A DNA stretch of 64,000 nt from Shigella phage CT01. The first letter of the stretch is position 1, and the number at the start of each line of letters is the position of its first letter. The stretch lies in sequence record OK018184. One strand, 5' to 3'. Position numbers and translations under genes: made by a program. A model generated the notes under the pieces. The model saw only the letters and a list, made by a program, of their open reading frames with translations. It ran no database searches and was not told the DNA's origin. Positions 1,427-38,697 of this stretch are shown here, piece after piece.

Positions 1427-1686
1427 AAAAGATTCCTTTTAATGTATCTTTTAGACCATTCTATCATATCATCATAATCTAAAAAGTATTCATCAAATTC
1501 AGCCATGCAAACAACACCTTGTGCTGCTTTTGATGTGATATAAATTATTCCAACATATCTAGAATCTTCTTCGGTGTAATCAATATTTGCTATGAATTCA
1601 TCATTAATGTCAAATGTCGAAAACTTCACAGTATGCATCCTTAATACAAGATACAGCCATATCTTGTAATGATTTAGGTGTGTCAT
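1423..1686 (-). CDS. hypothetical protein; probably the downstream half of a frameshifted ORF
   Basis: 87-aa track ORF that overlaps 1610..1873 in another frame; the two frames rejoin if 7 nt at a GACATT-T-GACATT repeat are removed. Confidence 0.3.
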   Translation of the reverse strand: MTHLNHYKIWLYLVLRMHTVKFSTFDINDEFIANIDYTEEDSRYVGIIYITSKAAQGVVCMAEFDEYFLDYDDMIEWSKRYIKRNLL

Positions 1687-1873
1687 TATCTAAAATGTTG
1701 AAGTTAAAAGATACAGCCCAGTCAGTGCAGACCGTGACCTTTTTAATACAATTATCTTCAACCTCTAACGGTTCAAACCAGTATTCAATAATTTCTTTAT
1801 GCCCAATATCATCTTTTACTTCGCATTCAAAATGCTGACACATCATAACATTTTTAAATTCATCAAAAGTCAT
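1610..1873 (-). CDS. hypothetical protein; probably the upstream half of a frameshifted ORF
   Basis: 87-aa ORF whose ATG overlaps the gp47 stop (ATGA); it ends at a TGA created within the GACATT repeat. Confidence 0.4.
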   Translation of the reverse strand: MTFDEFKNVMMCQHFECEVKDDIGHKEIIEYWFEPLEVEDNCIKKVTVCTDWAVSFNFNILDNDTPKSLQDMAVSCIKDAYCEVFDI

Positions 1874-2889
1874 TGTGTTGCCTCTACATATAACTGATTT
1901 GCATATTGAATAAGTGCTTCACGGTCAGAATCAGTGATGTCTGGAATTGCATTAATGTATTCTTCCATCAATGTCTGAAGAGATTGAACTTCAACTTCTT
2001 CACTATCATCTGACTCGACAGAGTTATCAATCTTTGACACAACTCGTAATGAATGCACAACTTTTTCTAGTTCAGATTCGAACTTCGTTAGATTTTTGTC
2101 TACCTCAGTTACTATAACACGTACTGATAGATTTGTAAAATCTTTATAGTCAATTTTTCCCTTAAATGGATATTGAATTCGACGATGCCAGGTAGTGTTG
2201 TTTGGAATAAATTCCATTCGTTCTGTTTCTGTATCAAACATCCAGAACCCGCGAGGGTCATTCTCGTCACCTGCAGTTAGTGTCCATGGTGTCCCAATAT
2301 ATCTGACGTTAGCAGCCTCAGAGATAGTATGGAAGTGACCAGACCACACTTCCTTATAAGTCTTAAGGAAATCAGGTTCAAGGCCATGAGATTTCATTCC
2401 TTTATAAAAATAAAATCCATTCAGCTCCCAGTGACCGACACAGAAGGAAGCAGATGAAGTTTTGATGTGTTCAAGAATTTCACCAGTATTTTCTTCACAC
2501 ATCCAAGGAATTAAATCAATCAAACATCCGTCAAAATCTACTGTAGTAGGCTTATCATATACTTTAACATTAGGATATTTAGCCAAAAGCTCAGTAGAAG
2601 CATTTGGAGTTAAAGTATTTTTAAAGTGCATATCATGGTTTCCTACAACAGTATGTAGGGTAATACCAGCATCATCAAGCATTTGAACTATTTCACGTGC
2701 GAACTCCATAGTTTTATGCGTGATTGCTTTTCGCACATCAAAAATATCACCGTATTGAATCCATGTAGTAATTCCATTTTTCTTAGAATATTCTATTGCT
2801 TGTTTAATTCCATCCAACTGAATGGATTGAATCCACTCATCATCGGCTTTAACACCTAAATGCCAATCACCTAAATTTAAAATTTTCAT
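1870..2889 (-). CDS. 47: gp47 recombination endonuclease subunit (Mre11/SbcD-like phosphoesterase)
   Basis: 339 aa with calcineurin-like phosphoesterase motifs GDWHLG, GDIFD, GNHD, GHFH; position between gp46 and a-gt. Confidence 0.9.
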   Translation of the reverse strand: MKILNLGDWHLGVKADDEWIQSIQLDGIKQAIEYSKKNGITTWIQYGDIFDVRKAITHKTMEFAREIVQMLDDAGITLHTVVGNHDMHFKNTLTPNASTELLAKYPNVKVYDKPTTVDFDGCLIDLIPWMCEENTGEILEHIKTSSASFCVGHWELNGFYFYKGMKSHGLEPDFLKTYKEVWSGHFHTISEAANVRYIGTPWTLTAGDENDPRGFWMFDTETERMEFIPNNTTWHRRIQYPFKGKIDYKDFTNLSVRVIVTEVDKNLTKFESELEKVVHSLRVVSKIDNSVESDDSEEVEVQSLQTLMEEYINAIPDITDSDREALIQYANQLYVEATQ

Positions 2890-3044
2890 ATATCAAGAAC
2901 CGTCATTGAAATGCAAAATAAAATTATTGAAATAAATCCATCTGGAGTGCTAAAGAACCCAATCCAACACGCTCTAGTGAATAGATAAAACGCTAGAAAA
3001 AGTATCACATATCCAAGAAATATCATTATATCAAACTCCGTATA

Positions 3045-3068
3045 AAGCTAAAGGGCCGAAGCCCTTTA
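3045..3068 (-). terminator. hairpin terminator downstream of a-gt
   Basis: AGGGC-CGAA-GCCCT stem-loop at the a-gt stop codon, followed on the minus strand by a U-rich run. Confidence 0.45.
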
Positions 3069-4268
3069 TTTTGTAATAATGTCAAACTGTTCTTTAAAGC
3101 AGAAGCTTGAATCTTGATGCTGATACAAAAATTCATAAGCTTTTTCGCGTTCACGGTCATAAAGAGCTCGGTCAGATGACAGTTCTTTAATACGCCCAAA
3201 TGTTGATTCCATGTCATTTTCATCAAACCAAACGATACCGCTATCATGAGAAATTAACGGAGTATTATCAACACGGAATTTTAAATTTTCACCAGTAGAT
3301 TTCCAAAATACTGGAATTGTTCCGCATGCACCAAGCTCGAGATGAGTGTATTCTAAAGAACGTTGTAGATATTTTTTATCTAATTTACTCAGCTGATAAC
3401 CAAATCCGGATTTACTCATACGTTCAAGCATTTCGCTATTTACATAACGGTCGAGAATTTGCGTTGGCAAATTAGGAGCAATTTTAATTTGGTCTACCTG
3501 ATGAAGACGATAATACTCGTATGGAATTCCTTTTTCTTTAATAGGAATGAATGCTGGAGAACGTTCCAGACCTTCCATAATAGTACTTAGTCCTGCAGGT
3601 TTAAGATGTTTTTCATGAAAATCAAACATCTGATAAAAGCCTTTCCATGTAGTAGTACGACCAATCCAACGGTTGATATTCATGTTAATTTCAGAAACAT
3701 CTTTCCAGTAGGTTGATCGAACCTTCGCAATATCCATAGGAGGCTGAAAGTTGTATACGGTCGGTGCTTCTTCAATATCATCAAACAGAGAAACTGTTTC
3801 TGGATACCATTCTTTCATCAGAACTTTATTAAAGTCACCATTATCAGAATGGCTAAAAATAACATCAGCTCGACGAACAGTTTCTTCTAATCCCAAATTT
3901 CGGCGTAAAGAAAGAGAAGAATGGTCATGCTGGTAAACTACAACACGAACCGAAGGTTTAATGTTATCAATAATTTTTTTATAGTTATTAATGGTGTCTT
4001 CTTCTACTGAAGTAGCAGGAACTGAATTGATAATTAGAATATCACAATCATTTACCAGCTTAAGGGTTTTATCGTATTCTTTTGCCAATAAAACTGGAAT
4101 TGAAAATGATTTATAATCATGCGCGCAATTACGAGTAAATGATTTATCTTTAGCATAAACCAAAGTTACTTCATGACCATTTTTAATAAACCAATCACGT
4201 TGCTCAAGAGAAAATTTAGTTACGCCACAACCTTCAAGACCTCGAGCCATAAAAATGCATACTTTCAT
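3066..4268 (-). CDS. a-gt: DNA alpha-glucosyltransferase (glucosylation of hydroxymethylcytosine)
   Basis: 400-aa ORF starting MKVCIFMARGLEGCGVTKFSLEQRDWFIKNGHEVTLVYAKD, matching T4 alpha-glucosyltransferase in length and sequence as recalled. Confidence 0.8.
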   Translation of the reverse strand: MKVCIFMARGLEGCGVTKFSLEQRDWFIKNGHEVTLVYAKDKSFTRNCAHDYKSFSIPVLLAKEYDKTLKLVNDCDILIINSVPATSVEEDTINNYKKIIDNIKPSVRVVVYQHDHSSLSLRRNLGLEETVRRADVIFSHSDNGDFNKVLMKEWYPETVSLFDDIEEAPTVYNFQPPMDIAKVRSTYWKDVSEINMNINRWIGRTTTWKGFYQMFDFHEKHLKPAGLSTIMEGLERSPAFIPIKEKGIPYEYYRLHQVDQIKIAPNLPTQILDRYVNSEMLERMSKSGFGYQLSKLDKKYLQRSLEYTHLELGACGTIPVFWKSTGENLKFRVDNTPLISHDSGIVWFDENDMESTFGRIKELSSDRALYDREREKAYEFLYQHQDSSFCFKEQFDIITK

Positions 4269-4304
4269 TTAATATCCTCATTGTTTTGGTTTATTTTACC
4301 AAAA

Positions 4305-4336
4305 ATTTATAAAGCAATATAGGAGCCGAAGCTCCT
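4305..4336 (-). terminator. hairpin terminator
   Basis: GGAGC-CGAA-GCTCC stem-loop followed on the minus strand by a U-rich tract. Confidence 0.45.
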
Positions 4337-4508
4337 ATCCGCATAATACACCATACAGAGGCTCATTAGAGCTTCTAAATTTTATACGTTTATGTGTTAT
4401 AGTTCCTTCTGCTTTAGCTTTATCATGAGACTCTTTAAAGCGTCTCATCATTTCTACTTTAGAGGAACGAATTTTATTATAATCTATTTCACAAGTCTGG
4501 GCGTTCAT
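4335..4508 (-). CDS. small hypothetical protein (57 aa), not in the ORF track
   Basis: ATG at 4508, hand-translated MNAQTCEIDYNKIRSSKVEMMRRFKESHDKAKAEGTITHKRIKFRSSNEPLYGVLCG, ending at the terminator hairpin; no strong RBS. Confidence 0.3.
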   Translation of the reverse strand: MNAQTCEIDYNKIRSSKVEMMRRFKESHDKAKAEGTITHKRIKFRSSNEPLYGVLCG

Positions 4509-4511
4509 CTT

Positions 4512-4718
4512 TCACAGTTGCCACCATTTTTTGACTTGATAAGAATCAACCCACACTTTCATATTAGGGTCTGCTCTTACAATAGGAGGATTAACTTCTT
4601 TAATTGAACTATCATGGTATTCTTTTTCAGAAATTTTCACACAAAGATGACCATTCAAAGATTCAGTAAATCCTGCATTAATTTTAAGACGCTTGAATTT
4701 TACGTGTGTAAGCATCAA
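4512..4718 (-). CDS. hypothetical protein
   Basis: 68-aa track ORF overlapping its upstream neighbour by 35 nt; weak. Confidence 0.25.
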   Translation of the reverse strand: MMLTHVKFKRLKINAGFTESLNGHLCVKISEKEYHDSSIKEVNPPIVRADPNMKVWVDSYQVKKWWQL

Positions 4719-38276: not shown

Positions 38277-38281
38277 AAAAC

Positions 38282-38371
38282 TGGCGGAGGCGATAGGATT
38301 TGAACCTATGAGTCGCCGGAGCGACTGCCGGTTTTCAAGACCGGTGCATTAAACCACTCTGCCACGCCTCC
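38282..38371 (-). tRNA. tRNA-Ser (TGA), duplicate copy
   Basis: Identical to 37706-37795, shifted by 576 bp. Confidence 0.85.
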
Positions 38372-38373
38372 AG

Positions 38374-38447
38374 TCTCCATACAAGGATTTGAACCTTGGA
38401 CCTCCTGATCCCAAATCAGGCGCTCTACCAAACTGAGCTACACGGAG
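38374..38447 (-). tRNA. tRNA-Pro (TGG), duplicate copy
   Basis: Identical to 37798-37871, shifted by 576 bp. Confidence 0.8.
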
Positions 38448-38457
38448 TAAATTAAAT

Positions 38458-38531
38458 TGGAGCGGATAATGAGAATCGAACTCACATCATCAGATTGGAA
38501 GTCTGAGGTAATGCCATTATACGATATCCGC
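38458..38531 (-). tRNA. tRNA-Gly (TCC), duplicate copy
   Basis: Identical to 37882-37955, shifted by 576 bp. Confidence 0.85.
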
Positions 38532-38536
38532 AAATT

Positions 38537-38623
38537 TGGTGCGAGAAGTGGGACTCGAACCCACAAGGAAATCATTCCGCAGCATTTTAAGTGCTGTGCC
38601 TTTACCAATTTGACCATTCTCGC
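38537..38623 (-). tRNA. tRNA-Leu (TAA), duplicate copy
   Basis: Identical to 37961-38047, shifted by 576 bp. Confidence 0.85.
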
Positions 38624-38624
38624 G

Positions 38625-38697
38625 CTGGGAATAAAGGACTCGAACCTTTGCATCCTGGAATCAAAATCCAGTGCCTTACCAACTTGGCTAATTCCCA
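38625..38697 (-). tRNA. tRNA-Gln (anticodon TTG), intact copy, CCA not encoded
   Basis: Acceptor TGGGAAT/ATTCCCA, anticodon loop TTTTGAT, T-loop TTCGAGT; abuts tRNA-Leu with a 1-nt spacer. Confidence 0.8.

Follow-up and report, generated by a model that had tools for sequence, protein, structure and literature searches.

The question raised by the window, by which we mean the whole analysed stretch of 64,000 nucleotides (nt) of Shigella phage CT01 (record OK018184), is whether the three exact tandem duplications in it (D1, D2 and D3, with periods of 177, 146 and 576 bp) belong to the phage or to the way in which its sequence was put together. The window belongs to a T4-like phage (Tequatrovirus), of whose genome it covers the segment from gene 46 through gene 17. 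An initial annotation had offered recent recombination and a faulty assembly as the two ways of understanding these repeats; this frame is right, but the two sides are not evenly balanced, and the evidence leans to an assembly or finishing problem. With moderate confidence, we suggest that D1, D2 and D3 are finishing artefacts, namely contig overlaps which were left untrimmed.

All three methods by which the duplications were called (Tandem Repeats Finder (TRF), a repeat search and exact extension) agree, and the zero divergence claimed for them earlier is confirmed: the copies differ at 0 positions over 176 bp (D1), 146 bp (D2) and 577 bp (D3). Each duplication consists of two copies in a head-to-tail tandem arrangement, and exact repeats of this length cannot be attributed to chance. 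It had also been correctly noticed that a gene start or an RNA gene is duplicated, which is the start of gene 49 in D1, the start of a DUF4031 gene in D2 and six tRNA genes (Leu, Gly, Pro, Ser, Thr and Met/Ile-CAT) in D3; these six are the only whole genes in any unit, D1 and D2 holding gene ends and starts only. No gene is broken by any of the three, each of which adds one small chimera (two short open reading frames (ORFs) and one tRNA-like hybrid), and owing to D1 the hairpin between pin and gene 49 occurs twice. The junction sequences of D1, D2 and D3 are TTTGAGTTTCAAGAAGTTCTCGTTGGCAAATTAAGC, CATTGATTCTTCTCCAAATACATTCCTATTGCTTCTGCCA and ATCCAGTGCCTTACCAATAACTCCCCAAATTAATTTGG, respectively, and the coordinates are presented in Table 1.

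Table 1. Positions in the window of the duplicated units, their chimeric products and the genes around them
Feature	Position	Strand	Details
46.2 stop / 46.1 start overlap	1606-1619	-	cGACATT tGACATT
Gene 49, intact	10618-11091	-	endonuclease VII, 157 aa; 99.4% identical to T4
D1 copy 1, 176 bp	11003-11178		belongs to intact gene 49
D1 content		-	last 12 pin codons, pin-49 intergenic hairpin, first 30 codons of gene 49
D1 chimeric ORF, 42 aa	11140-11268	-	gp49 residues 1-30 fused in frame to last 12 of Pin
D1 extra base	11179		A on + strand; between copies
D1 copy 2, 176 bp	11180-11355		100% identical to copy 1
pin, intact, 148 aa	11317-11763	-	
DUF4031 gene, intact, 87 aa	19880-20143	-	
D2 copy 1, 146 bp	20015-20160		last 6 codons + stop of 49-aa gene, first 43 codons of DUF4031 gene
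D2 chimeric ORF, 49 aa	20140-20289	-	DUF4031 residues 1-43, then YLEKNQ, stop
D2 copy 2, 146 bp	20161-20306		100% identical to copy 1
Upstream 49-aa gene, intact	20286-20435	-	MKITPIEV...EKNQ
tRNA array, 16 genes	37294-38697	-	T2L type, without segB
D3 copy 1, 576 bp	37530-38105		exact match of 577 bp: 37530-38106 vs 38106-38682
D3 content		-	3' 59 nt of tRNA-Gln; Leu, Gly, Pro, Ser, Thr, Met/Ile(CAT); spacer; first 10 nt of tRNA-Tyr
D3 junction chimera	38048-38116	-	5' 10 nt of tRNA-Tyr + 3' 59 nt of tRNA-Gln; D arm short by ~5 nt
D3 copy 2, 576 bp	38106-38681		100% identical to copy 1; base 38106/38682 shared

A fourth item, a short frameshifting repeat, had been counted together with these duplications in the initial annotation, which let the affected region span about 37 kb. 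This item is not an event, since positions 1606-1619 are base-for-base identical in T4 (NC_000866), while in phage sutha a single base immediately downstream of it is different. Genes 46.1 and 46.2 are annotated as separate genes in both T4 and sutha, with no split ancestral ORF, and the repeat is thus, as judged from these sequences, ancestral gene organisation. Only one more short exact repeat exists (12 bp x 2.2 at 35180-35206); it keeps the reading frame, and its ORF is equally long in sutha. As the 1606 item drops out, the true cluster extends over 11003-38682, i.e., 27.7 kb.

The junctions were sought elsewhere by junction-only BLAST queries, in which each half was below the 28-nt seed, and no match spanning any of the three junctions was obtained among 50,697 GenBank phages. 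Queries of 160 nt around the junctions match hundreds of records, and the 12 best per junction all align as two pieces at the ends of a single-copy unit. Additionally, the exact strings of all three junctions were not found in IMG/VR, those of D3 and D1 (the two scanned there) were not found in JGI metagenomes and those of D2 and D3 (likewise the two scanned) were not found in GTDB genomes, and the chimeric proteins of D1 (42 aa) and D2 (49 aa) have no exact match in a 153-billion-gene index. The exact Pin protein is present on three Logan contigs, all of which carry the locus in single copy. Other proteins specific to the window, looked up by exact match, led to various samples and to no single sequencing run, and a duplication was present in none of these samples. 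Near-identical relatives in independent assemblies are also single-copy: L093 (SRR12802600) has 0 mismatches to window positions 9171-12548 around D1, L090 (SRR26926504) has 0 mismatches around D2 over the range checked (18416-23000), L091 (DRR848842) is 100% / 99.85% identical around D2, and L095-L104 show a single copy as well. In ten further genomes, all single-copy, the distance from trna.2 to a 116-aa ORF is about 940 bp, compared with 1518 bp in the window. Judging from these comparisons, D1, D2 and D3 are private to the window sequence among the collections scanned.

How unusual such a cluster is can be seen from a background scan of 104 T4-like loci, the first 89 of which amount to 1.14 Mb of distinct 31-mers, in which exact tandem duplications of period 30 or longer were sought. 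A single one was detected, in L035, and none in the 17 loci added beyond 1.14 Mb. It occupies positions 6301-6554 of IMGVR_UViG_2974737508_000001; its unit is 126 bp long, the junction homology amounts to 2 bp, and the repeat extends across a stop/start gene boundary. At this background rate, the Poisson probability of three duplications in 27.7 kb is about 2e-6 (about 3e-5 for the whole window). The duplications had been called independent, which is unlikely with a background of about 1 per 1.1 Mb against three in 28 kb; with a rate so low, a cause common to all three is needed.

The breakpoints show hardly any homology, namely 0 bp plus one extra base in D1, 0 bp in D2 and 1 bp in D3, with no imperfect homology. 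When breakpoint pairs with the same spacings were placed at random in the window, some 53% of the trials gave 0 bp and some 29% gave 1 bp, so the breakpoints look random. The extra base of D1, the A at 11179, is untemplated, as position 11002 is T and position 11356 is C. We considered polymorphism as the source of this base and rejected it, since relatives have T or C at the 11002 site and C at the 11356 site, and the allele is present in none of them. It is already known that experimentally characterised tandem amplifications and deletions of T4 have 2-10 bp of microhomology, typically 6-10 bp (PMC9391042), and the tRNA-Tyr/segB repeat of T6 has microhomology too (PMC13096335). Tandem duplications that arise spontaneously in the rII region of T4, at homologies of 2-10 bp, were described by Kumagai et al. 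1993, as that work is cited in PMC9391042. None of D1, D2 and D3 displays the 2-10 bp microhomology of T-even amplifications.

The copies are exact, private to this record, clustered and joined without homology, and we infer an end-to-end joining step as the cause of this combination. Contigs or gap-closing pieces of one genome would have overlapped by 176, 146 and 577 bp, and these overlapping pieces would have been joined end to end with the overlaps left untrimmed, one spurious base being inserted at the first join (D1); the phage DNA itself would then be single-copy at all three loci, like every relative. A single procedural cause of this kind would account for all three duplications at once. 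Selection offers little help for two of them, as D1 and D2 duplicate no complete gene and thus give no dosage benefit on which it could act. Moreover, exact tandem repeats are expected to be lost by homologous recombination, and amplified arrays of T6 collapsed without selection (PMC13096335). As for read data, the initial annotation had misstated the refuting sign by assigning doubled coverage to an artefact: doubled coverage on a collapsed single-copy reference, together with reads that cross the junction, is what marks a real duplication, while an artefact is recognised by normal coverage and no reads across the junction. If D1, D2 and D3 are artefacts, the record overstates the genome length by 899 bp and lists 16 tRNAs instead of 10, with two spurious ORFs and one pseudo-tRNA added, and such errors spread to tRNA counts, pangenomes and databases.

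Several points weigh against this explanation. Genes were left intact in three of three cases, which random joins would manage in, by a rough estimate, about 10-15%. The sequence is otherwise clean, unlike the usual badly fragmented assembly: the T4 homologues carry no frameshift specific to this isolate, private substitutions are absent within about 190-210 bp of the duplication junctions, and the rest of the sequence has no signs of poor assembly. The breakpoints carry no repeated k-mers of at least 14 nt that could account for contig breaks, except for a self-complementary palindrome near D3. Common de Bruijn assemblers are not known to leave overlaps of 146-577 bp, and overlaps of 146, 176 and 577 bp are not typical assembler k-mer sizes. 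Real illegitimate recombination has acted on this lineage, as follows from private deletions with 6-bp and 14-bp direct repeats (described below). Finally, tandem amplifications of T-even phages are known at the tRNA locus and at the 49.1-nrdC.1 locus beside pin (PMC13096335).

These points lead to the strongest alternative, which we regard as possible but distinctly less probable than untrimmed joins: the duplications would be real, very recent, homology-independent and neutral. They would have arisen in a replicating concatemer, where sister copies underwent end joining or illegitimate recombination of the topoisomerase type, and been fixed by plaque bottlenecks, and they would be neutral because each unit spans a gene boundary. 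The high quality of the sequence is in keeping with this, and so are the undisrupted genes, to which chimeras were merely added, the comparable 126-bp gene-boundary duplication in L035 and the 14-bp palindrome 8 nt from one D3 breakpoint. Against it stand the three of three junctions that lack the 2-10 bp homology of documented T4 duplications, as well as the improbability (about 1e-5) of three unselected events in one genome at the background rate. Exact repeats of 146-577 bp should also be unstable in a recombination-proficient T-even phage, and resolving a true 576-bp repeat as exactly two copies requires long inserts or long reads.

A further argument for real duplications is that the same genome has undergone other structural changes. 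Private junctions were sought by mapping window positions spanned by no relative, a search repeated against an enlarged locus set, and there are six of them in the window, i.e., the three duplications and three deletions of 639, 486 and 75 bp. The 639-bp deletion (31015-31158, 30465-31082) has its junction at 31035-31040, between 6-bp repeats AAAACG, when compared with the reference SF2-1, whose left flank is 100% identical. It leaves 41 of 138 denV residues and removes a small internal-head-protein gene, while ipIII has lost its ribosome-binding site and ATG and gained an in-frame ATG-TTC from denV; owing to the denV deletion, the phage is predicted to be without endonuclease V repair of ultraviolet damage. 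This junction was not found in GenBank phages or IMG/VR. The 75-bp deletion (about 36295-36308) is in frame, between the 14-bp direct repeats TTCTTAGAAATTTT, in ORF 36018-36506, which encodes 162 aa vs 187 aa in SP1 and other relatives; the 75 bp are retained in all ten best-matching records. Given the classic direct-repeat signature of T4, the 639-bp and 75-bp deletions are probably real. The third is a 486-bp in-frame internal deletion with 1 bp of junction homology in a homing-endonuclease gene between genes 2 and 3, where a remnant is left at 42103-42384 (junction 42343; comparison with SF2-1 and EC.W14-2, flanks 100% identical). Its junction was not found in GenBank phages, and the deletion may reflect true decay of the gene or, in a concatenated assembly, a gap that was skipped.

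Point mutations are few by comparison. At the 45,949 positions for which at least 5 relatives provide coverage, there are just 5 private substitutions (2698, 3196, 33653, 34668 and 44951), which equals 0.11 per kb compared with 1.2-11 per kb in relatives, although the comparison set was picked by similarity to the window. The contrast is suggestive, but biased by this choice of database, and we therefore do not rely on it. Many structural changes with few point mutations is the pattern of evolved T4 (PMC9391042). Taken together, a burst of homology-independent rearrangements in a natural T-even phage, comprising three duplications and deletions in denV/ipIII, the homing-endonuclease gene and an ORF of the e region, is a tentative and rather unlikely proposition. 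If it is correct, the window would show the 'genomic accordion' caught in the wild and operating without SegB and without microhomology, T-even phages could fix several tandem duplications, and a tRNA block could double naturally, which bears on tRNA-targeting defences, yet extends a phenomenon already described.

The breakpoints of D3 lie inside tRNA genes, at nt 15 of tRNA-Gln and nt 10 of tRNA-Tyr. The window has a tRNA count of 16, vs 10 in sutha and SP1, and the order of the array in relatives is Arg Asn Tyr Met Thr Ser Pro Gly Leu Gln. The Tyr/Gln chimera at the D3 junction reaches 32.6 bits with the Rfam tRNA model (threshold 29) and receives no ARAGORN call. Unequal crossing-over through tRNA-Gln/tRNA-Tyr homology was also considered and rejected, since the two tRNAs are joined 5 nt out of register and have 1 bp in common. 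Some further features of the array can be mentioned here. The tRNA-Tyr of the window has an Rfam score of just 30.3 bits, and its counterpart in SP1 is annotated as a pseudo-tRNA. A perfect 14-bp palindrome, CCAAATTAATTTGG, is located at 37538-37551, near the left D3 breakpoint, and extends from the 3' CCA of tRNA-Met across the spacer into tRNA-Tyr, of which it includes the first two G. In place of segB of T4, the array has tRNA-Asn and tRNA-Tyr, and it thus carries tRNA-Asn, the preferred SegB cleavage site described for segB-less phages.

Could at least D3 be an adaptive 'genomic accordion' amplification, as driven by SegB in T6/T4? The six tRNAs would in that case have been doubled under selection from a host defence that targets tRNAs or from codon demand, with deletions compensating the genome length. 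In favour of this, a D3 breakpoint lies 10 nt into tRNA-Tyr and D1 ends within pin, and SegB cuts a T-arm motif of every tRNA gene (PMC2330249), copies of which (RAWTSGAAC) are present within the D3 unit. The net balance of +899 bp duplicated and -1200 bp deleted would also suit compensation. However, there is no segB in the window, its canonical slot being the one held by the tRNA-Asn and tRNA-Tyr just described; tRNA-Tyr, the gene amplified in T6, was left out of the D3 unit, no whole gene is contained in D1 or D2, and there are two copies only, with no microhomology. The SegB motif was also tried as a feature of the breakpoints themselves and rejected, since its copies are confined to tRNA T-arms, and the window total of 11 vs 6.5 expected is not above chance. 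We therefore consider an adaptive amplification improbable, and all readings besides the three discussed so far are, taken together, likewise improbable.

Less credible still is a chimeric assembly, in which contigs of two related phages present together would have been joined where they share identical segments. The window is indeed a mosaic, whose segments match different samples at 99.9-100% identity, and 122 records contain the D2 unit at an identity of at least 99%. On the other hand, L093 matches both sides of D1 and L090 both sides of D2 with 0 mismatches for kilobases; with the same relative identical on both sides there was no donor switch at these junctions, and we rejected a two-strain chimera for D1 and D2 on this ground. 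The copies are also identical, base 11179 is not an allele seen in relatives, and we hold a chimera for very improbable overall. Old functional repeats, or paralogous genes, kept by selection are a reading refuted by their absence from all relatives; nothing beyond their being repeats speaks for it, they show zero divergence over 899 bp vs 1-4% in the nearest relatives, and their units cut through genes and tRNAs.

BLAST with positions 9000-22000 matched about 980 phage records, nearly all of them from Tequatrovirus or its relatives, with a best identity of 96.7%. According to tblastn with T4 proteins, the T4 gene order is kept (46, 47, a-gt, 55, nrdG/D, 49, pin, nrdC, tk, regB, e, tRNA cluster, ipI, 57A), and the late genes 3 to 17 come after 57A, likewise in T4 order. 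The early genes are on the - strand and the essential genes are all full length, while mobB, mobC, I-TevII, mobD, segB and segC are all missing from the window. A frameshift in vs.5 compared with T4 (the only such frameshift examined) is common to phage sutha. The genome is a fine-grained mosaic of T-even segments in circulation. For example, window positions 53156-61125 and L106 (Logan SRR22222717, an unrelated run), a 7,970-bp contig, differ at 2 bases, and other parts match best elsewhere (SRR12802600, SRR26926504 and DRR848842).

Repeats of other kinds were also recorded. Seven 62-nt direct repeats, 61-73% alike, are found at 7526-7587, 18395-18456, 19836-19897, 20462-20523, 35811-35872, 39693-39754 and 40059-40120, and the DUF4031 cassette with D2 in it is flanked by two members of this family. 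On the - strand, the family reads GTTTACA...TAtaCTAT, which resembles T4 early promoters. Imperfect 24/48-nt tandem repeats in the C-terminal part of gene 5 (45744-45878) and a 21-nt repeat in wac (58483-58524) are taken to be ordinary structural repeats of those proteins.

Known systems offer several comparisons. Segmental amplification was described for dmd-tifA of T4 by Srikant et al. 2022 (PMC9391042) and for tRNA-Tyr/segB and gp49.1-nrdC.1 of T6 by Chihara et al. 2026 (PMC13096335). Like these T-even accordion cases, the window has head-to-tail repeats in a non-essential early region, with private deletions elsewhere in the genome. The accordion cases involve a complete anti-defence gene or tRNA, usually in more than 2 copies, with 2-10 bp microhomology and in a SegB-dependent manner, whereas the window has each unit twice, with homology of 0-1 bp, and no segB, two of its three units lacking a complete gene. 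If real, the duplications would resemble those of T4 rII (Kumagai et al. 1993, in the form cited in PMC9391042) in being tandem duplications made by illegitimate recombination, and would differ from them in homology, which is 2-10 bp there according to PMC9391042 and 0-1 bp here. Regarding tRNA clusters, SegB homing and cluster variation among T-even phages were investigated by Brok-Volchanskaya et al. 2008 (PMC2330249). The array of the window is of the T2L type, without segB and with Met, Tyr, Asn and Arg present, which is the kind that SegB cleaves, with a site per tRNA gene (PMC2330249); SegB homing replaces such an array with the T4 version and is not known to duplicate arrays, and no segB is visible in the window. 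Artefacts of untrimmed overlaps, either between contigs or from circularisation, share with the window exact copies, arbitrary homology-free breakpoints, several occurrences per record, absence in relatives and, occasionally, a stray base at a join. Whichever explanation holds, the phenomenon is of an already known kind.

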